DNA of 64,000 bases, from sequence record OK335775.1; one strand, given 5' to 3'. The stretch is from Escherichia phage PSD2002. Shown one piece after another: positions 29,798 to 38,577 of this stretch; the stretch's first letter is position 1, and every line of letters starts with the position of its first letter. The notes below the pieces were generated by a model, which was given only the letters and a program-made list of their open reading frames with translations, was not told the origin of the DNA and did not search any database. Both the position numbers and the translations under genes were made by a program.

Positions 29798-29874
29798 GGC
29801 CCTGTAGCTCAATGGTTAGCAGCAGTCCCCTCATAAGGGAAAGGTTACCAGTTCAAATCTGGTCCGGGTCACCA
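29798..29874 (+). tRNA. tRNA, anticodon CAU (Met, or Ile if lysidine-modified)
   Basis: Hand-folded cloverleaf: acceptor GGCCCTG/CCGGGTC, D-loop AATGGTTAG, anticodon loop CU-CAU-AA, T-arm ACCAG-TTCAAAT-CTGGT, encoded CCA. Confidence 0.7.
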
Positions 29875-29879
29875 ACTAT

Positions 29880-29954
29880 GTCCCGCTGGTGTAATGGATA
29901 GCATACGATCCTTCTAAGTTTGCGGTCCTGGTTCGATCCCAGGGCGGGATACCA
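29880..29954 (+). tRNA. tRNA-Arg (anticodon UCU)
   Basis: Hand-folded: acceptor GTCCCGC/GCGGGAT, anticodon loop CU-UCU-AA, T-arm CCTGG-TTCGATC-CCAGG, encoded CCA; T4 also encodes tRNA-Arg(UCU). Confidence 0.75.
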
Positions 29955-30364: not shown

Positions 30365-30399
30365 GTATAAATATGTAGTAAACTAACTTAGGAAATAAT

Positions 30400-30864
30400 A
30401 TGAAAACTTACAATGAATTTTTGACTGAACAATCTAGTTCAGATGTAAAAGCCGCTGCTATTGCAGCAATTCAAGCAGGTAAATATTCTTACAAAGACGC
30501 CTCTGATGAAGAACGTTTCCGTTTTATTAAAGATTTTAAAGCCGAAGGTTTTACTAATGCTAATACTGTTAGCCGAGTTTTTAAAAGCCTAGCTGCATCA
30601 GGTGAATTGTTCCAGAAAGCTACAGGTAAAGCACCTGCGTCAAAAGCGGACCCTAAAGCCGCTCAAGAAAAAAATATCGCCAAAGGAATTATTTCTAAGT
30701 ATGAAGCAATTCTTAAAGAGCTTTTAGTAATCAAAACAGAAGGCCAGAAACTGGCACGAGCACATAGCTTCAAAGATAATCCACATGCTCACGACTTAGA
30801 GTATGTTGAAGATATTCAGAAAATCATCAAAGACCGTATCTGGTCTGCTAAACAAATCAAATAA
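30400..30864 (+). CDS. CTS-bearing protein (predicted capsid-packaged internal protein)
   Basis: Starts MKTYNEFLTEQ; 154 aa, Lys/Ala-rich. Confidence 0.6.
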   Translation: MKTYNEFLTEQSSSDVKAAAIAAIQAGKYSYKDASDEERFRFIKDFKAEGFTNANTVSRVFKSLAASGELFQKATGKAPASKADPKAAQEKNIAKGIISKYEAILKELLVIKTEGQKLARAHSFKDNPHAHDLEYVEDIQKIIKDRIWSAKQIK

Positions 30865-30867
30865 CGA

Positions 30868-30888
30868 AAGCCCCAGATGGGGCTTTTT
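30868..30888 (+). terminator. rho-independent terminator
   Basis: AGCCCC-agat-GGGGCT followed by TTTT. Confidence 0.7.
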
Positions 30889-30978
30889 GGTTAACTTAGA
30901 GAAATATATGAAACTTTTAAAATAAAGCTATGTTAGCCTTCCACATAAACCCATTCCGGTTCTACAAGAACTGATTCT

Positions 30979-31007
30979 AGGCCCTTCCGAAAGGTTGGGC
31001 CTTTTTT
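30979..31007 (+). terminator. rho-independent terminator (copy 2, near-identical to 30336-30364)
   Basis: AGGCCC-ttccgaaaggtt-GGGCCT followed by TTTTTT. Confidence 0.7.
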
Positions 31008-31029
31008 GTTTCTAAAAAGTTTAAAAAGT

Positions 31030-31078
31030 TGTTTACACCTCCTTTAAACATGATACTATAGACCTATCAAAACAACAG
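31030..31078 (+). promoter_or_regulatory. early promoter cassette (PeSL-like)
   Basis: GTTTAC 31030-31035, 17-nt spacer, TGATACTATAGACCTATCAA, SD GGAGAG. Confidence 0.6.
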
Positions 31079-31094
31079 AGTGAAGGAGAGTAAA

Positions 31095-31358
31095 ATGGAT
31101 AATTATGGTGAATTGTTTAATTTCTTTATGAAATGCGTTCCGGAAGAATTTGGTGCTACAGTTAACGATATTAAAGTTATCGGTCCTGAACACCCGGTGT
31201 ATGAAACCTATGCAGTAATGGGTAATGAAGATGGACAGTGGTATACAATTAAAGTTGTGATTAATATGTTCTCAGCTGAAGGTTACGCCAAATCGTCTAC
31301 CAAAGTTTACCATGGTAATGATTTTGATGCAGAAAATTATTTCAATAATATGAAATAA
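31095..31358 (+). CDS. hypothetical protein
   Basis: ORF from MDNYGELFNFF after SD; 87 aa. Confidence 0.5.
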   Translation: MDNYGELFNFFMKCVPEEFGATVNDIKVIGPEHPVYETYAVMGNEDGQWYTIKVVINMFSAEGYAKSSTKVYHGNDFDAENYFNNMK

Positions 31359-31416
31359 AACGTTTACATGGGCTCATGATTAAGATATTATGAGCCCATA
31401 ATTTGAGGAGAACATA

Positions 31417-31815
31417 ATGAATATCGAAGATAAAGAAATGCAAGAGTTGTATAATTCATTAACACCTGAACAACAAAAATATGCCAAAGAACTAGAGAAA
31501 GCTCTTACTTTCAACTTGGCAAAAACTGATTGGGCCGCGATGTATGAAGAAAAAACTAGATTAGAAATTGAAGCTGCTGAGAGAAATGAATGGGTTGTCG
31601 AAACCAAGATTTCTGATGGTGGTTGCTCTGTTGAGGTGTCAGCTGTAGTTAAAGGTACCCATGGCGAAAAATCATGGGGCTGGCATAATGAAGCAAACAA
31701 ATGTATTGTTCTCTCAACGTCAAAAACTTATGGGCAAAGGGCTCCTGTATCCAAAGCTATTATTAAGCAAGCTCAATGGGAAGCCAATGAAATTTGCCTC
31801 GCAAAAATGAAATAA
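31417..31815 (+). CDS. hypothetical protein
   Basis: 132-aa ORF with SD GAGGAG; preceded by 10-bp perfect inverted repeat ATGGGCTCAT...ATGAGCCCAT (31368-31399). Confidence 0.5.
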   Translation: MNIEDKEMQELYNSLTPEQQKYAKELEKALTFNLAKTDWAAMYEEKTRLEIEAAERNEWVVETKISDGGCSVEVSAVVKGTHGEKSWGWHNEANKCIVLSTSKTYGQRAPVSKAIIKQAQWEANEICLAKMK

Positions 31816-31819
31816 AAAT

Positions 31820-31860
31820 GTTTACAACCCTCAGAGGACAGGGTATAATGTCCTCATGGA
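31820..31860 (+). promoter_or_regulatory. early promoter (GTTTAC -35, GGTATAAT -10) with inverted repeat GAGGACA/TGTCCTC flanking the -10
   Basis: GTTTAC 31820-31825; TATAAT 31844-31849; 18-nt spacing. Confidence 0.55.
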
Positions 31861-31891
31861 TTATAAATCTTAATCAACTGAAGGAAATACT

Positions 31892-32485
31892 ATGAACACT
31901 TTAAAGAAAATCGTTGAATTCATCCGTTCTAAACTGGGTACCGCAATGACTCAGAACCTGTCAATCGAAGACCAATACACCAAAGCGGCTTCTACCCTGA
32001 TTGATAAAATCACTGAACTCCAGACTGCTCATGTTAAGTCTGTGAATGAAGAAAAACGTATTCGTGCTTTGGCTAATGAAAAAGACCAGCTCGCTGCTTC
32101 TAAAGAACGTGAAATTCGTAAACTGATTGCCGAAGGCTCTGATGTCCAGGTACATGCTAAACTCGGCCTCCTTTATCGTCGTACGGCTACTCAACTTCGT
32201 AAGAAAGCTGATGATTATGTTGAAATGCGTAATGAAATTAAACTGAAGGTTAAGGAACTTGATGACTCTCGTCAGGAACTGGCTGTTAAGCTCGAGTACA
32301 TCCGTGAAACTCGTAATATGGCTGCCCTTGGTATTGCTACTGCCGATGATGTTGTTGAAATCGCTGCACTGACTAAGATTGATATTGAAGACACCCTACT
32401 GCGTGTAGAAACGTTTAAAGGCCCACAAGTTGGAATGGATACGACTTCTGCCGATATCGAAGACTACATTAATTCACTTAAGTAA
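31892..32485 (+). CDS. coiled-coil protein, possibly PspA/IM30-like
   Basis: 197 aa, largely heptad/helical (…[15 protein letters not shown]…[24 protein letters not shown]…); resemblance to PspA is by eye only. Confidence 0.5.
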
Positions 32486-32492
32486 TGTTACC

Positions 32493-32515
32493 GGGAGACT
32501 TCGGTCTCCCTATTT
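32493..32515 (+). terminator. rho-independent terminator
   Basis: GGGAGAC-ttcg-GTCTCCC followed by TATTT. Confidence 0.65.
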
Positions 32516-32533
32516 GGAGGAGAGGAGAATATT

Positions 32534-33070
32534 ATGAGTTTATATGATAACCTTATATCAAATATTGATTGGTTTAAAAATAGTGGTCTTTCCCATGAAA
32601 CCAATTCAGTTCTTTATAGAATTCGCCAAGACCTAGGCTATTCAAACGATTTCTTAAGCAGAACATCTAGCCGTGGGCATACTACCAAATTACCCTTTAT
32701 CTTTGCTTTAGCTGAGGACCTTTCTTTTGCAGATGCTTTAGAAATTATTGACCTTGAATTAGGTATACAACGTGTGGAGTTCGCTGGGCTACGCTATTCA
32801 GTATACTCTTTAAATGAACCAAGCGATTATAAACAGCTTGTTGATGCCGACGATGATTACCATTTAGTATGCTATTTGATGTTAGAAAATGGTGACCACT
32901 TTGGTATGGTCGACCGCCGCCCGAGTTATTCGGATATTAAAAATTACGATAAAGATGAGCTTATTATTTTAGCCAATGAGTATACATCAGAGATTCGTAA
33001 ACAACAACGTAAACTTAATCGTTTTATTACTGAATGTCGCGAATACGCTAAAGAGGTTCAAAATGCATAA
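32534..33070 (+). CDS. hypothetical protein
   Basis: 178-aa ORF; C-terminal ...RFITECREYAKEV shares junction motif with two downstream genes. Confidence 0.5.
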   Translation: MSLYDNLISNIDWFKNSGLSHETNSVLYRIRQDLGYSNDFLSRTSSRGHTTKLPFIFALAEDLSFADALEIIDLELGIQRVEFAGLRYSVYSLNEPSDYKQLVDADDDYHLVCYLMLENGDHFGMVDRRPSYSDIKNYDKDELIILANEYTSEIRKQQRKLNRFITECREYAKEVQNA

Positions 33071-33416
33071 GCCTAGTAAAACCGACCCTGGTTACGCATT
33101 AGCAGATTATGATATAGCTATTTCCTTATTCCTCGGCATTGCTACTAGTATGACTGCAGGGATAATTGGATTTCTTGTCGGTGGGATTATTAATGGTATG
33201 CCTCGCCATCCGTTTGAAGATATGAGCCTTGCATGGATTTGGGTTCCGGCTTTAATAGGATTTTTTATCCCATGGGTCTTTGATATTGCCCAAACTAATA
33301 AAATAAACAAGCCACGTAAAAAGAGATATGCTTTAGCTATGGCTAATTATAATGAGTATGTAAAACAAACTAAACGTAATGACCTTGAAACCTTTATTAA
33401 GGAATGTAAATCATGA
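33063..33416 (+). CDS. small membrane protein (two predicted TM helices), C-terminus ...FIKECKS
   Basis: ORF from MHKPSKTDP; hydrophobic segments; paralogous C-terminal half to 37287-37874. Confidence 0.5.
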   Translation: MHKPSKTDPGYALADYDIAISLFLGIATSMTAGIIGFLVGGIINGMPRHPFEDMSLAWIWVPALIGFFIPWVFDIAQTNKINKPRKKRYALAMANYNEYVKQTKRNDLETFIKECKS

Positions 33417-33703
33417 ATAAAATTGAAATTGAAATCCCGGAACACAATGACGAGAAATCTGCAGAAAAGGCTATATATGCTCTTCTGAATAAAGCGAATA
33501 CCATCGAATATGAATGTGAAGCTATTGCCGATAAGTATGGTATCCAATTCGGTACCGGTGGTTATGGTTCAGGCCGTACATATTATCCTGTCGGTTATGA
33601 ATGCTCCCAGTGGTTTAAAGATGAAATTGAAAACAACGGCGGTGAAGTTGAAAACGGTGTCGTTACAGTTGGTGCTTGGGTCTCCTCTTCGGCAATGTGC
33701 TAA
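33413..33703 (+). CDS. small protein, WxSSxxC-tail family member 1
   Basis: 96 aa ending ...GAWVSSSAMC; ATGA overlap with upstream gene. Confidence 0.55.
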   Translation: MNKIEIEIPEHNDEKSAEKAIYALLNKANTIEYECEAIADKYGIQFGTGGYGSGRTYYPVGYECSQWFKDEIENNGGEVENGVVTVGAWVSSSAMC

Positions 33704-33712
33704 GGAAACGCT

Positions 33713-33994
33713 ATGATGAATGATTACCGTAAAAATAAAGAGCTGGCTGACGCAGTAAATGATATCCATAAAGCTATTCGTCGTGCCGAGGAAATTGCTA
33801 ACAAATATGAGACTCATTTTAATATATACCCTGCTCGCGGTATGGGCGGTGACTATTATTCTCCTGGCGCCCTGAAAGCCGACCTTGCCCACTGGGAAGA
33901 ATACGGTGAAGCTCAGTACGCTATTGTAAACCAACATGATTACACTACCAGCCTAGAAAATGGTGGTTGGGTGTCCTCTTCTTCTGAATGTTAA
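33713..33994 (+). CDS. small protein, WxSSxxC-tail family member 2
   Basis: 93 aa ending ...GGWVSSSSEC; SD AAGGAAA formed by previous gene's Cys-stop codons. Confidence 0.55.
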   Translation: MMNDYRKNKELADAVNDIHKAIRRAEEIANKYETHFNIYPARGMGGDYYSPGALKADLAHWEEYGEAQYAIVNQHDYTTSLENGGWVSSSSEC

Positions 33995-34003
33995 GGAAAT
34001 AAA

Positions 34004-34216
34004 ATGACTATTGATGAAATTGAAAACCAAATCCGTGAATTAGTACGTAAAGGCCAGTCTGTGGCTGACGAAACGGGTGAAGAGTTCCGTGTTTCTGGTC
34101 GTGGAGAATACATTTCTCCAAAGAACCCGGAATATGATGATTACGAATGGGTCCGTGATGACTACGGTATTCCGGAAGGTGAAGGTTTCTGGTTTACATC
34201 CTCTATGTCTTGCTAA
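34004..34216 (+). CDS. small protein, WxSSxxC-tail family member 3
   Basis: 70 aa ending ...GFWFTSSMSC. Confidence 0.55.
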   Translation: MTIDEIENQIRELVRKGQSVADETGEEFRVSGRGEYISPKNPEYDDYEWVRDDYGIPEGEGFWFTSSMSC

Positions 34217-34227
34217 GGTGATAAAAA

Positions 34228-34452
34228 ATGTCTGATATTAATGAATTAGAAAAAGCTGCACTTGAACTGGCTGCACTGTATAAGAAAGTAAAAGATATGG
34301 CTTCTGCTCAAAGTTTTGGTGTTGAGCTCGACGATTATGACGGTGAAGTTCGTCTCGAAGATTGGCTGAATAGCTCGTGTTATGGCGAAGAAGCTGGTCG
34401 CACCTTCGTTGCTCAGGCCGATGGTAAAATCTGGTATCCGAGCTCATGCTAA
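34228..34452 (+). CDS. small protein, WxSSxxC-tail family member 4
   Basis: 74 aa ending ...KIWYPSSC. Confidence 0.55.
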   Translation: MSDINELEKAALELAALYKKVKDMASAQSFGVELDDYDGEVRLEDWLNSSCYGEEAGRTFVAQADGKIWYPSSC

Positions 34453-34673
34453 AATTAAAGAAAAGATACATTCGTAAAATAAATGGTCTTCGCGATTATG
34501 CCAAAGGTTGGCCGTTAAGTATTATTATGGCTGATAGACACCCGCGTTATAATACTGAGATGACTTATTACAAAAAGTACGATTCATATTGTCGGTCTAA
34601 AGCAGGTCGTTTAGATGGTTCTTATGAAGACTATTTCGGTAAAAAACCTACTCGTATTTCGTTAGGAAAATAA
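34446..34673 (+). CDS. hypothetical basic protein
   Basis: 75-aa ORF overlapping end of previous gene. Confidence 0.4.
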   Translation: MLKLKKRYIRKINGLRDYAKGWPLSIIMADRHPRYNTEMTYYKKYDSYCRSKAGRLDGSYEDYFGKKPTRISLGK

Positions 34674-34703
34674 TTTAACCACATGGATGTGGTAGGAGGA
34701 CTT

Positions 34704-35033
34704 ATGCATAAAGATTCAGTATTCAAATATCTTTTGAAAACAAATAAAGAATTCTATATGAATGGACAGGCCTTCTTGTTCGTTCGTGGTAAACGTGAGA
34801 TGTTTTACAAATGCGACCTCTCAATGCACCATCATATGTATCACACCCGCGGTGAGCCTATACTGGGGTTCTCTGGTGACGAGACTAGACACATAGCTAT
34901 GTACTACGACCATTTTAAGCTCAATGATTGTGGTGACAACGCTTTGGTCTGGAATCCATCTTGGTGTCGTTGGGATACGGTAGACAACGATAAATTATTT
35001 TTAGAATATTGCAGAAGCGATGTACAACTCTAA
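34704..35033 (+). CDS. hypothetical protein (His/Cys-rich)
   Basis: Start trimmed to ATG after SD GGAGGA; 109 aa. Confidence 0.45.
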   Translation: MHKDSVFKYLLKTNKEFYMNGQAFLFVRGKREMFYKCDLSMHHHMYHTRGEPILGFSGDETRHIAMYYDHFKLNDCGDNALVWNPSWCRWDTVDNDKLFLEYCRSDVQL

Positions 35034-35076
35034 AAATACGTGTTACTATTACCCTACACAAACATGAGGAGAACAT

Positions 35077-35316
35077 ATGTGGTATTACGCTCCGATGTCC
35101 GATAAGTCTAATGAACCGGTACGCATTACTCGCGCCAAGTTTAAAAAGATTTATGGCTTCTCTTATAAGAAGTCTGATTACGGTGTTCGTTTTGAAGATG
35201 CCCACTGTATCAATGACCCTTATGCTGAAGAAATCTCTAATGAGATAATTCCTATCATTAAGAATAATTCTGATGATATGTGGGAATTGCATAACGATTA
35301 CGTCGCTGAAATTTAA
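35077..35316 (+). CDS. hypothetical protein
   Basis: 79-aa ORF with SD GAGGAG. Confidence 0.45.
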   Translation: MWYYAPMSDKSNEPVRITRAKFKKIYGFSYKKSDYGVRFEDAHCINDPYAEEISNEIIPIIKNNSDDMWELHNDYVAEI

Positions 35317-35335
35317 GTTTACTGAGGAAAATATT

Positions 35336-36295
35336 ATGATGTTAGTTATTGGTTCTCGTGCACTGCACCACGCTGGTTTGATTGAAAGTAAGCATATCGA
35401 AAATTCTGATTGGGATTTCATTGCCGACCAAGGCTCATGGAATCACTTTAAAGCACGTATGTTCGGCGCCCATGTACACGTTGACAATCCTGATGTCCAG
35501 GCTTTTAAATGCATGTACAACGGTAAAGAAACCTATTTTGAAGCATATATCGTTCGTGCTCTGACTAACGTACGAGAAATTACCGGCGAGCTTCAAGACG
35601 AAGATTTCACTTCAAGCTATCGTCTCCTGAAATATGCTGAAAATCATATTAAAAAGGACCGTCTTACTGGTTTCTATTGGGCCACCCTTGATATCTGTCT
35701 GGCTATCAAAACCTCTCATCGTTTCCTTAAGAATAATCCGTTCTTCTTGAAAACTATGTCACACATCAAATACCTTCGTAATAAAGGTATCACCCTTAAC
35801 GAAGAACTCCAGGAAATTATGCTGCAACGTCAAAAAGAAACGTTGAGCTATTCTCACCCTAAATTGGACGTAAACAAATCATCGTTCTTTAATGATACCA
35901 TTTATACGCTGGACCATGACTCTATTCATGAAGCAGTGGCATTGGCAGGGCGCCCTGCATATACCTTTTATATGAAGGAAGGTTCTGAAGTCATGACCTC
36001 TCGTGAGAAGTTCGAGGCTTTGCCTGAAGCTATTAAACTGGCTGGTGTATATGAAGAAACTTGTGTCCTGGCACTAGAACGTTCACAGGTTCCTAATGAC
36101 TTCAATATTTCACCATCATTAAGTTTTTATATGGCTCTTGAGAAAGTGTGTACCTCAATCACTTCAGGTTGGTTCCGCGAGTACGCCTGGGAAAACTACC
36201 AAGCTGTAGTGAATATGTATAAGACTTTAGGTGAAAACGACTACATTGAACGGTTTAAGCGTAACCAACATTTAATTCGTCCTTTCGAAAAATAA
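35336..36295 (+). CDS. hypothetical protein with nucleotidyltransferase-like N-terminal motif and C-terminal R-x5-H
   Basis: 319 aa from MMLVIGSRALHH...NSDWDFIA (GS...DxD pattern); ...ERFKRNQH near C-terminus; assignment by motif only. Confidence 0.5.
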   Translation: MMLVIGSRALHHAGLIESKHIENSDWDFIADQGSWNHFKARMFGAHVHVDNPDVQAFKCMYNGKETYFEAYIVRALTNVREITGELQDEDFTSSYRLLKYAENHIKKDRLTGFYWATLDICLAIKTSHRFLKNNPFFLKTMSHIKYLRNKGITLNEELQEIMLQRQKETLSYSHPKLDVNKSSFFNDTIYTLDHDSIHEAVALAGRPAYTFYMKEGSEVMTSREKFEALPEAIKLAGVYEETCVLALERSQVPNDFNISPSLSFYMALEKVCTSITSGWFREYAWENYQAVVNMYKTLGENDYIERFKRNQHLIRPFEK

Positions 36296-36307
36296 TTGCA
36301 CAAAACA

Positions 36308-36352
36308 GTGTACAAGGTCTATAGGTGTGATACTATAGACCTATCAAAACAA
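36308..36352 (+). promoter_or_regulatory. early promoter cassette (PeSL-like) with 9-bp inverted repeat GGTCTATAG/CTATAGACC
   Basis: GTGTAC -35 variant 36308-36313; TGATACTATAGACCTATCAA; SD GGAGA. Confidence 0.55.
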
Positions 36353-36373
36353 CAGAGTGAAATGGAGAATAAA

Positions 36374-36586
36374 ATGAAACTTTCTAACCAAGCAATCAAC
36401 ATGTTAAACGAAGTTCGTGCAGCTGGTGCTAAATGCCTGATGGTTAACACTCGTGACGGTGACCTTCGTCAAGCATTTGGTGAATTGAAATCTGCTGACC
36501 TGGTTAAATGTTCAGTTGGTATTGGTAACGCACTTCGTGTATCCTTATCCCCTAAAGGTAAAATGTACTTTTTCAACAAAAAGTAA
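36374..36586 (+). CDS. hypothetical small protein
   Basis: ORF from MKLSNQAINML after SD; 70 aa. Confidence 0.5.
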   Translation: MKLSNQAINMLNEVRAAGAKCLMVNTRDGDLRQAFGELKSADLVKCSVGIGNALRVSLSPKGKMYFFNKK

Positions 36587-36600
36587 GTGAGGAAAATATT

Positions 36601-37287
36601 ATGAATAGTTCTAAAGTGTTTAATAGTCAAGCTCGTGCAGTAGGCGGTTTTGCTCATGCAATTAAAAACGACCAGATTAAAAACGAGCCTATGTTCTTTA
36701 ACTGCGATTTGAATTTTGCTTTTGATAATGGCGGCCCAATTACTCGTAGCTTTATCCAAAATCTTCCTGACGATTGGAAAGACTCGGATGTAGTATTTGA
36801 TTCCCGTGTACACATGTTAATGCCTGGCTGGTACCCTGCAATTCCAGGCTTCCACCATGATGATGTACCACGCCCGGATATTCCGGTGGGTCAACACTTT
36901 ATTACCGCAGGGCAACCTGATTATGATAATCCTCGATACCATTCTGAACATATTCTTGGTCTTGTTAACGCTGATGTGTGTCCTACTCATTTTGCAACCG
37001 GAACTGCACAGTTCAGTCAGATTCCTGAAGGCGAACTTATCTATCGCCAGTGGCATAAAGAAGTTCTGGAAAAAATTGAGTCCAATGAATTAACCAAGTG
37101 GAATGCTCCTGACCGCACGTTGCTCCAGTTTGATTGGCAGACATGGCATACAGGTTCTCGTGCAGTAAGTAATGGGTGGCGCTGGTTTGGTCGTGTGTCT
37201 CGTAATACAGACCGTGTTAAAAAGATTACAAATGAAATCCGCGTTAATGCTCAAGTATATCTGGAATTCCCTATGGAGGGCTGGTAA
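36601..37287 (+). CDS. hypothetical protein, possibly 2OG-Fe(II) oxygenase-like (HxD...H)
   Basis: 228 aa; motif GFHHDD followed by downstream His and Arg residues; assignment tentative. Confidence 0.45.
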   Translation: MNSSKVFNSQARAVGGFAHAIKNDQIKNEPMFFNCDLNFAFDNGGPITRSFIQNLPDDWKDSDVVFDSRVHMLMPGWYPAIPGFHHDDVPRPDIPVGQHFITAGQPDYDNPRYHSEHILGLVNADVCPTHFATGTAQFSQIPEGELIYRQWHKEVLEKIESNELTKWNAPDRTLLQFDWQTWHTGSRAVSNGWRWFGRVSRNTDRVKKITNEIRVNAQVYLEFPMEGW

Positions 37288-37874
37288 TGGCCCTTTATGA
37301 ACCTGGTTGTATGGGTATTGATACAAACTTCATCCGTCGGTCGGAAAATGCTGGAATTATTATCCCAAGTGGTGAGAATATGATTATTAAAAAGTCCTGG
37401 CGAAATATCGATGACGGTGATGAAGGAATTTCAGCCAGTACAATAGATTGGTCAGGTTGTACTGCCGAAATGAAACAGCTTTTAATTGAGGAATATAAAA
37501 TGGGCTATATCGTAAACGGCTGGCAAGCGGAACCACATAAAGAACAGACTCCAGACCCATTGATTTGTTATAGCAAAAAATACGGCTTCCGTGCCTGGAG
37601 TGATGAATACGACAAATTGGTGAGTTCTAGATTCTATGTTTGGATGGGTATATTATTTTTCCCACTCCTAGGGTTTTTCCTGACAACAGATAATGACCTG
37701 CCTATTTGTGTATTCGCTTCAGCGATGTCTGCTGCTATCTTAGGTCTTATCGCATCATTTTTATGGACCTCTGTTATCGAAGTACCTTTTCGTATTTCTA
37801 AAGTTAAAAAGGTATATGACGATATCACTAAGAAAAATACATTAAACTCTTTTATTAAGGAATGCCGTAAATGA
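37287..37874 (+). CDS. membrane protein (C-terminal TM helices), C-terminus ...FIKECRK
   Basis: 195 aa; hydrophobic segments VWMGILFFPLLGFFL and AILGLIASFLW. Confidence 0.5.
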   Translation: MALYEPGCMGIDTNFIRRSENAGIIIPSGENMIIKKSWRNIDDGDEGISASTIDWSGCTAEMKQLLIEEYKMGYIVNGWQAEPHKEQTPDPLICYSKKYGFRAWSDEYDKLVSSRFYVWMGILFFPLLGFFLTTDNDLPICVFASAMSAAILGLIASFLWTSVIEVPFRISKVKKVYDDITKKNTLNSFIKECRK

Positions 37875-38107
37875 GCATTGCAATTTATATTAAATCTGAG
37901 TCATGTGATTCTTATCTGTATTCCTATGATACCGGAACATCAGAAGAGAAAATTAAAGAAGACTTAGAAAGCGATATGGATATGTTCTGTCCTATTGGTG
38001 ACTATATGCTTCAAGTGTCTGATAGTGAAAGTCCATCATCAGAAAATAGACTTCAAATTATTATGCAAGATATTTTTAAACAATCATGGGAACGAGACGA
38101 TGAGTAA
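37871..38107 (+). CDS. hypothetical acidic protein
   Basis: 78-aa ORF, ATGA overlap. Confidence 0.45.
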   Translation: MSIAIYIKSESCDSYLYSYDTGTSEEKIKEDLESDMDMFCPIGDYMLQVSDSESPSSENRLQIIMQDIFKQSWERDDE

Positions 38108-38549
38108 GAAAGTGAAAGAACTATCTGCCGGTATTTTATTCATGACCGTTGATAAAGAACTGGTCATGGGCCGTGTAACAGGCTCTCGTAATCCAGAGAA
38201 TATGCGTCATAAATGGGACATTCCTAAGGGTCATGTCGAACCAGGCGAAGAGCCTATTCAAGCGGCAATGCGCGAAACCGAAGAAGAGATTGGATTCACA
38301 GCATACGATCCTGCGTTCCTGAAAGACCTAGGTGAGTTCAAATATTCAAGCAATAAGAATCTACATCTGTTCTTATATACAGTGCCTGTGGAACACGAGC
38401 AGTTCAAGGATTGCAAATGTACGGCTTACCATACGTTCCCTGATGGTCGTACTATTCCTGAATTCGATGCTTTTGCCTTGATTAAACGGCCACAATGGGA
38501 ATATGTCATGGGCCCGTCGATGTTTAAGGTTTTGGATTCACTCTTTTGA
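38100..38549 (+). CDS. nudE: NUDIX hydrolase (NudE-like)
   Basis: Nudix box GHVEPGEEPIQAAMRETEEEIGF; position immediately upstream of e as T4 nudE (e.1). Confidence 0.8.
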   Translation: MSKKVKELSAGILFMTVDKELVMGRVTGSRNPENMRHKWDIPKGHVEPGEEPIQAAMRETEEEIGFTAYDPAFLKDLGEFKYSSNKNLHLFLYTVPVEHEQFKDCKCTAYHTFPDGRTIPEFDAFALIKRPQWEYVMGPSMFKVLDSLF

Positions 38550-38577
38550 TATAAATACCTCCTATACTCAGGAGGTA
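38550..38577 (+). promoter_or_regulatory. late promoter (TATAAATA) overlapping a hairpin that sequesters the gene e ribosome-binding site
   Basis: TATAAATA 38550-38557; stem TACCTCC/GGAGGTA (38556-38562 / 38571-38577) contains the SD; same arrangement as described for T4 gene e. Confidence 0.7.

Follow-up and report, generated by a model that had tools for sequence, protein, structure and literature searches.

Tandem small phage proteins with a C-terminal W-x-S-S-x-x-Cys tail and their genomic partnership with a Pol-beta-fold nucleotidyltransferase

The window analysed here is a stretch of 64,000 nucleotides from Escherichia phage PSD2002 (sequence record OK335775.1), a Dhakavirus-like T-even phage. 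The locus of interest within it consists of a head-to-tail array of four genes for small proteins that end in a tail of the form W-x-S-S-x-x-Cys, or a shortened version of it, followed about 0.9 kb downstream on the same strand by the gene for an enzyme with the Pol-beta nucleotidyltransferase fold (the last stop codon of the array ends at 34452 and the enzyme gene starts at 35336). Comparative genomic data strongly support this gene partnership as a newly recognised one, and the small proteins and the enzyme probably constitute an undescribed module. An original prediction, made from the letters of the window alone, had drawn attention to the four consecutive plus-strand open reading frames (ORFs), giving their lengths and tails and noting that a stop codon directly follows each; all of this is borne out, every one of the stops being TAA. 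It had also stated that no obvious modifying enzyme lies adjacent, a statement that is not supported: the downstream nucleotidyltransferase is a near-universal neighbour of the family.

Paralogue 1 (33413-33703, on the + strand, as are the others) has 96 aa, an isoelectric point (pI) of 4.4 and the C-terminus GAWVSSSAMC, its tail motif W-V-S-S-S-A-M-C occupying 33677-33700; paralogue 2 (33713-33994; 93 aa) ends in GGWVSSSSEC (motif at 33968-33991), paralogue 3 (34004-34216; 70 aa) in GFWFTSSMSC (34190-34213) and paralogue 4 (34228-34452; 74 aa) in KIWYPSSC (34432-34449). Pairwise identity among the four proteins is 20-31%, and all four match the same family profile, phrog_899, with E values of 1.5e-23, 7.3e-20, 6.2e-14 and 1.4e-9, respectively, so that these profile matches identify them as homologues belonging to one protein family, as had been proposed, and not as chance resemblances. 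All are strongly acidic (net charge -6 to -10, pI 4.2-5.0), and each has a C-terminal Cys preceded by Ser-Ser, with Trp at -7 (or -5). The motif G-x-G-x-x-Y-(Y/I)-x-P that had been seen upstream of the tail in three of the proteins proves, in its form G-x-G-x-x-Y-Y-x-P, to be the YGMGGTYYP loop of the family; the YGxGG loop is present in three of the four window proteins and is deleted in paralogue 4. Paralogue 4 also carries an internal copy of the tail motif (W-L-N-S-S-C, within DWLNSSC, at 34363-34380 on the + strand), a point which the original prediction had missed.

The spacers between the four ORFs are 9-11 nt long, and each opens with TAAGG, which combines the stop codon with the Shine-Dalgarno sequence. 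About 35 nt are common to the gene junctions (TGGGTnTCCTCTTC...GAATGYTAAGGAAA, comprising tail, stop codon and Shine-Dalgarno sequence), and the repeated junction unit consists of the tail codons plus TAAGGAAA. The Ser codons of the tails do differ between copies, as had been pointed out: they are tcc/tct/tcg in paralogue 1, tcc/tct/tct/tct in paralogue 2, tcc/tct/tct in paralogue 3 and agc/tca in paralogue 4. The shared junctions are a plausible substrate for unequal recombination, through which copies of the gene could be gained or lost.

The family extends well beyond the window. A word-indexed search retrieved T-even relatives only, and a 20-sequence profile run with HMMER against 1.84 billion representatives yielded 414 clusters at 50% identity (E <= 1e-3); one match of 1,367 aa (P0153) is a repeat protein and was rejected as a false positive due to its composition. 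The tail statistics cover 182 readable small homologues (family mean length 89 aa, mean net charge -7.9); in 173 of them Cys is the very last residue, and in five others a single residue follows it. Trp occupies position -7 in 166 of these homologues, and Ser occupies positions -4 and -3 in 167 and 166, respectively; positions -2 and -1 are unconstrained. The claim that the tail is conserved at the protein level is upheld by these counts. Orthologues in other T-even genera retain the Cys tail. The YGMGGTYYP loop is the second conserved element of the family and is near-invariant (G52, G54 and Y57).

The tail motif is not confined to the C-terminus. An extra internal W-x(1-2)-S-S is found in 40 of 173 members, compared to 1.5 +/- 1.2 in composition-matched shuffles, and 14 of the internal copies have a Cys 0-2 residues further on. 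Most members have two residues between Ser-Ser and Cys, whereas the fourth subtype, like many of the internal copies, has none. With internal repeats far above the shuffle expectation, the tail behaves as a repeatable short linear motif, as would be expected if it is recognised. The AlphaFold2 model of paralogue 1, the sole protein modelled, is a compact helix-plus-sheet domain (predicted local distance difference test, pLDDT, 91) with a helix at residues 14-42, which agrees for this one protein with the helical N-terminal half that had been ascribed to all four. The tail is the least confident block of the model (pLDDT 76, as against 92-96 elsewhere), and its having the lowest pLDDT in an otherwise confident model suggests that it is accessible.

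Arrays of 1-6 paralogues occur across 39 IMG/VR loci identified by a loop-motif search, in T4-like phages, in jumbo phages of 350-370 kb and in phages of 58-120 kb, and at 10 loci the array includes the subtype of paralogue 4. With identities of 20-30%, the paralogue types are ancient, and their order is preserved across T-even genera; for these reasons the paralogues are not redundant. A fifth paralogue of 65 aa (MSRELDC...TSWVSSSYEC) lies between paralogues 2 and 3 in Dhakavirus ABTNLS3, a Salmonella phage, and in Gaprivervirus VR7 (loci L057, 1205-1402, and L003, 3592-3789), and is missing from the corresponding position of the window (33994-34004). In Klebsiella phage KP13-26 (locus L056, 2437-3751) similar tails are found on other bodies, namely a 52-aa protein ending in ...WRSSSYDC and a 139-aa protein ending in ...WCSSSMTC, and the same phage encodes a 145-aa protein ending in ...WISSSICW. 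The family hidden Markov model (HMM) misses these tail-bearing proteins, which are either very divergent members or cases in which the tail has moved onto other scaffolds. The remark that the family is not recognised from T4 is consistent with the syntenic e.3-e.2 interval of that phage, which is without the small proteins; the T4 genes nrdC.1, nrdC.2 and nrdC.3, considered as counterparts on the basis of synteny in Aeromonas phages, were rejected, neither the HMM of the small proteins nor that of the enzyme matching T4 at 1-50 kb or 64-74 kb.

No characterised family claims the small proteins, as had been anticipated. Scans with Pfam, NCBIfam and PADLOC gave no match for the four proteins or for 138 homologues, the sole matches of a profile search against PDB sequences were designed helical proteins, aligned to the N-terminal helix, and fold searches of PDB and BFVD retrieved no characterised family. 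The beta-grasp fold ending in Gly-Gly that defines ubiquitin-like sulfur carriers (ThiS/MoaD) was not found.

The original prediction had offered two readings of the tail, as a recognition tag or as the core of a ribosomally synthesized and post-translationally modified peptide (RiPP). The former fits the linkage to the enzyme described below. In the latter, as developed here, Ser would be activated and eliminated to dehydroalanine, to which the terminal Cys would add to form a ring resembling lanthionine or S-aminovinyl-cysteine (AviCys), with the nucleotidyltransferase activating the hydroxyl through O-nucleotidylylation. A C-terminal S-x-x-Cys is spaced as in AviCys rings, the one in epidermin being an example; the invariant residues of the tail are Ser, Ser and Cys, and the conserved enzyme nearby could activate a hydroxyl. 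Neither dehydratases and cyclases (LanB/C, LanM, LanKC, LanL) nor the decarboxylase LanD gave a Pfam or PHROG match among the ten genes at 31892-36292 or among the neighbours shared across 40 loci, and YcaO and radical-SAM genes were likewise undetected among the window genes and the shared neighbours. The small proteins are predicted to be folded domains and not leader-core peptides, a spacing between Ser-Ser and Cys that is 2 in most cases and 0 in others does not suit a single ring, and we know of no precedent for elimination from a nucleotidylylated Ser. The lanthipeptide-like version of the RiPP proposal is thereby weakened to the point of being highly improbable.

The association between the small proteins and the enzyme was assessed in both directions. 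When same-strand neighbours within 5 kb of the arrays were clustered by family, one family alone was widely shared, a protein of about 310-340 aa found at 37 of 40 loci; in each of these the enzyme is downstream on the same strand, and the remaining three loci end at a contig edge just past the array. Starting from the enzyme, small genes, 1-6 in number, lie within 5 kb at 75 of the 80 IMG/VR loci retrieved with enzyme peptides (at 73 of them on the evidence of the HMM alone). The small genes are nearly all upstream of the enzyme, with a median gap of 346 nt, some of the gaps being as short as 9-60 nt and some genes overlapping. The pair is also present in all seven of the sampled GenBank loci from Proteobacteria phages (Otagovirus, Phapecoctavirus, Klebsiella phage KP13-26 of the Stephanstirmvirinae, Hadassahvirus, a Salmonella jumbo phage, Menderavirus and Biquartavirus).

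The linkage is asymmetric. The five enzyme loci without small genes comprise one T4-like contig and one small clade, and small partners were undetected beside distant homologues of the enzyme in Vibrio KVP40-like phages, Bacillus phage G, and Streptomyces and Gordonia phages. Conversely, in the 37 loci that were reached through the small proteins and extend far enough downstream, the enzyme accompanies the small genes every time. Since the enzyme can occur alone and the small genes in these loci never do, the distribution identifies the enzyme as the component that is older and more widely spread and the small proteins as an add-on, an arrangement that fits small proteins serving as an accessory or a substrate of the enzyme. 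In the small clade without small partners one copy of the enzyme is split (locus L120, 4788-5714) into two ORFs of 55 aa and 209 aa, and may be decaying.

Among 100,044 bacterial and archaeal species genomes (one genome each), the enzyme was found in three, in every case on a contig of 73-87 kb from a metagenome-assembled genome (MAG) with small genes directly upstream of the enzyme. These contigs (L051, L052 and L053), binned as Thermosynechococcus, Bacteriovoracales and Saccharibacteria, hold the complete module and are probably mis-binned phage contigs. Because only these three genomes matched, all through MAG contigs, the module is, on its genomic distribution, phage-specific. The null explanation, that unrelated early genes are co-located by chance, is argued against by a linkage that spans many phage groups.

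Escherichia phage QL01 is 99% identical to the window over 33000-35000, and the array region corresponds to the 'e.1-e.8' interval of T4, with a tRNA cluster on one side and the lysozyme gene on the other. The only tRNA genes in the window, tRNA-Met(CAT) at 29798-29874 and tRNA-Arg(TCT) at 29880-29954, lie about 3.5 kb upstream of the array. Genes for internal proteins (Ip) are found near the array; a capsid-targeting role of the kind played by internal proteins, which their proximity had prompted, was set aside, the N-termini of the small proteins being unlike the T4 targeting sequence. Two near-consensus sigma-70-type promoters, TTTACA-17-TATTAT at 31363-31391 (10/12 matches) and TTTACA-17-TATAAT at 31821-31849 (11/12 matches), are located upstream of an e.6-like gene and the array and are probably the early promoters of the whole block. 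No T4 late-promoter box was found on the + strand at 30373-38550, and the scanned interval has a single plus-strand terminator-like site, which is weak and falls within paralogue 3 (34073-34090). From this arrangement of signals we infer that the array and the enzyme are co-transcribed early in infection.

Directly upstream of the array is a gene for an e.3-like protein of 117 aa with predicted membrane segments (33063-33416), the stop codon of which overlaps the start of paralogue 1 (ATGA); its start is placed at 33063 by homologues and by the QL01 annotation, the position 32976 in the mechanical ORF list being too early. Since it adjoins the array upstream solely in T-even phages and not in other lineages, this gene is probably not part of the module. 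Between the array and the enzyme lie three small ORFs (34446-34673, 34704-35033 and 35077-35316), two of which match phrog_7065 and phrog_9796 and one of which has no PHROG match at E <= 0.01; other lineages, in which the gap is sometimes less than 60 nt, do not keep them alongside the module. An antisense ORF of 122 aa (33569-33937, - strand) that overlaps paralogues 1 and 2 is absent from the QL01 annotation and is most likely spurious.

This setting bears on the proposal that the small proteins act independently in anti-defence or host takeover, for instance as acidic mimics or decoys of nucleic acids, that their tail is recognised by a host protein and that they merely share an early operon with the enzyme. 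Their strong acidity, their position in a hyperplastic early region behind sigma-70-like promoters, the diversification of paralogues into arrays of a kind typical of arms-race genes and the presence of the fifth paralogue in some relatives and not in the window would all be expected of such proteins. The proposal is nevertheless decidedly unlikely, being at odds with a linkage that persists across unrelated phage groups whose neighbourhoods are otherwise different, and with the constant presence of the enzyme in the 37 loci in which enough sequence downstream of the small genes could be read.

The partner enzyme (35336-36295, + strand) has 319 aa and matches Pfam DUF7277 and DUF7275, the only Pfam entries that do so at E <= 1; its start is likewise fixed by homologues and by the QL01 annotation, the mechanical position of 35273 being too early. 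It has the Pol-beta nucleotidyltransferase fold with the catalytic motif G-S...D-x-D, and its best fold match is the MenT1 toxin; PF08843 is not matched, and neither is any PADLOC model. The family comprises more than 2,000 clusters at 90% identity, occurs in 733 of 50,697 GenBank phage records and has a mean column identity of 46% across distant phages, with G6, S7, D25, D27 and E69 invariant. Its helical C-terminal domain is dense in invariant polar residues (H128, H174, D193, H194, D195, H198, C243 and C272). RNA ligase, polynucleotide kinase and tRNA genes are found within a few kb of the enzyme in Streptomyces phage BillNye (L046), Salmonella phage SE_PL (L047) and jumbo contigs (L004-L016). 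Because such genes adjoin the module in some lineages, there are hints that the enzyme is linked to the metabolism or repair of RNA ends, a field in which MenT enzymes are known to act; the neighbourhood is confined to those lineages and is not universal. RlaP, considered as the enzyme's family on account of the RNA ligase and polynucleotide kinase neighbours, was rejected, PF10127 being unmatched at E <= 1.

The resemblance to MenT1 gives rise to the main rival explanation, in which the small proteins are antitoxin-like regulators or inhibitors of a nucleotidyltransferase that poisons tRNA 3' ends in the manner of MenT or AbiEii. They would bind the enzyme as MenA1 binds MenT1, with the tail plugging the active site or with the terminal Cys ligating a metal (a 'cysteine switch'), and would thereby time or restrain its activity. 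A small gene followed by a nucleotidyltransferase gene, often with a tiny gap or an overlap, is the classic antitoxin-toxin layout; MenA1 is likewise a short protein that blocks MenT1 (PMC10435456), and the invariant His, Asp, Glu and Cys residues of the enzyme's C-terminal domain could form a metal site. Yet one inhibitor would be enough where 1-6 ancient paralogues have been retained, several phages have the enzyme alone, the module is absent from the bacterial chromosomes that are home to such pairs (apart from the MAG contigs noted above), PF08843 and the PADLOC models are unmatched, and internal repeats of the motif are hard to reconcile with a plug. Taken together, these observations make antitoxin-like regulation rather unlikely.

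We favour, with a probability of roughly 0.4, an explanation in which the small proteins serve the enzyme as dedicated partners and the enzyme engages their tail, most likely as a Ser acceptor. Three features constrain any mechanism: the asymmetric two-way linkage, the presence of one conserved enzyme against 1-6 diverged partners with no more than a loop and a tail in common, and a tail motif that can be repeated. In the mechanism proposed, small acidic phage proteins of about 60-110 aa, with a long N-terminal helix packed on a small beta-sheet, would work with the downstream enzyme. Their flexible C-terminal W-x-S-S-(x0-2)-Cys motif, which with the YGMGGTYYP loop is the most conserved part of these proteins, would enter or dock at its catalytic centre, and the enzyme, using a nucleoside triphosphate, would nucleotidylylate or phosphorylate the Ser hydroxyl of the motif. 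The small proteins would thus be dedicated acceptor substrates made early in infection, and the diverged paralogues would offer the single conserved enzyme several carriers or effectors of different shape. We infer in particular a contact between the proteins, the tail as the site of that contact, Ser as the acceptor, and a role in host takeover or counter-defence tied to RNA-end or tRNA-end metabolism. MenT1 T39 and MenT3 S78, which are situated two residues before the first catalytic Asp, are auto-phosphorylated, so the active sites of DUF1814 nucleotidyltransferases can phosphorylate protein Ser/Thr (PMC11375011; PMC10435456). The alignment of the phage enzyme shows no conserved Ser/Thr two residues before D25, and it is therefore conceivable, by analogy, that the Ser acceptor is supplied in trans.

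Several observations weigh against a dedicated partnership in which the tail Ser is the acceptor. Thr almost never replaces either tail Ser, which is odd for a simple acceptor site, and a model of plain Ser nucleotidylylation leaves the invariant Cys without a role. The pI of the enzyme is 6.4, so that it is not basic overall and offers no simple charge match to its acidic partners. In the window the array is parted from the enzyme by three unrelated small ORFs, and the linkage could reflect co-regulation alone. To our knowledge, the targets of Pol-beta nucleotidyltransferases of this clade are tRNA 3' ends or small molecules and not protein partners, and a literature and database search, within its searchable library, found neither family named in a paper or database and neither the tail motif nor the pairing described in a publication or curated entry.

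The favoured partnership can be extended to an unrecognised protein-modification system of large lytic phages, in which the enzyme would attach nucleotides, singly or as short chains, covalently to the Ser/Cys tails of small acidic carriers and the resulting conjugates would be used against the host; this extension is more tentative, and we regard it as rather unlikely. Such protein-nucleotide conjugates would serve, for example, as decoys for defences that sense tRNA ends or nucleotides.

The module is widespread, occurring in T-even-like, rV5-like, Otagovirus and jumbo phages, many of which are used in therapy; the conservation of the enzyme is far above that of typical phage accessory genes, and the tail is among the sharpest terminal motifs that we have met in phage 'hypothetical' proteins. 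The pairing merges two anonymous database families into a single hypothesis that is open to standard biochemistry. If the enzyme modifies the tails, dedicated protein carriers would join tRNA ends and antibiotics among the substrates in nucleotidyltransferase biology; if instead the small proteins regulate a MenT-like enzyme, lytic phages would be exploiting toxin-antitoxin logic for their own ends.

In comparison with known systems, the window proteins are straightforward members of PHROG 899 and of Pfam DUF7277 and DUF7275, entries which carry no function and which, in the libraries searched, record neither the tail motif nor the link between the two families. RlaP (PF10127), a Pol-beta nucleotidyltransferase associated with RNA ligase, is like the DUF7277/DUF7275 enzyme a phage nucleotidyltransferase, and the latter has RNA ligase, polynucleotide kinase and tRNA neighbours in several loci (PMC7824862). 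The two differ in that PF10127 does not match the enzyme and in that the RNA-ligase neighbourhood of the latter is restricted to certain lineages. The precursors of class I-IV lanthipeptides and AviCys RiPPs share with the tail the conservation of Ser, Ser and Cys and the spacing S-x-x-Cys-COOH. The tail-bearing proteins differ from these precursors in being without cognate enzymes among the window genes and the shared neighbours, in their variable Ser-Cys spacing, in their lytic phage context and in their folded domain of 70-96 aa, modelled as compact, where a leader-core precursor is short and largely unstructured.

The MenA1-MenT1 and AbiEi-AbiEii systems are closer in layout. The phage enzyme can be likened in fold and action to DUF1814/MenT proteins and to aminoglycoside nucleotidyltransferases, but it is not a member by sequence, lacking PF08843, and it has an extra, highly conserved helical domain (DUF7275); its toxicity is only hypothetical. 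The known pairs are chromosomal with one partner, whereas the phage module is found only in phages and has 1-6 partner paralogues, the fold of which is unlike that of MenA1 or AbiEi and which bear in addition the invariant W-x-S-S-x-x-Cys tail; nor, apart from the three MAG contigs, does the module reside in the bacterial chromosomes, plasmids and defence islands that are characteristic of toxin-antitoxin systems. In MntA-HepT (MNT-HEPN) and GlnD-PII, a Pol-beta-fold enzyme nucleotidylylates a dedicated small partner on a side-chain hydroxyl, as in the working model proposed here. Those systems differ in using Tyr as the acceptor and, as the partner, a HEPN RNase or a PII signal protein; there is no homology to the phage module, for which modification is only hypothesised. 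The phage module, set apart from both kinds of system by being confined to phages, by its multiple partners and by its defining terminal W-x-S-S-x-x-Cys motif, combines a layout like that of toxin-antitoxin pairs with a logic that would be like that of enzyme-substrate pairs such as MntA-HepT.

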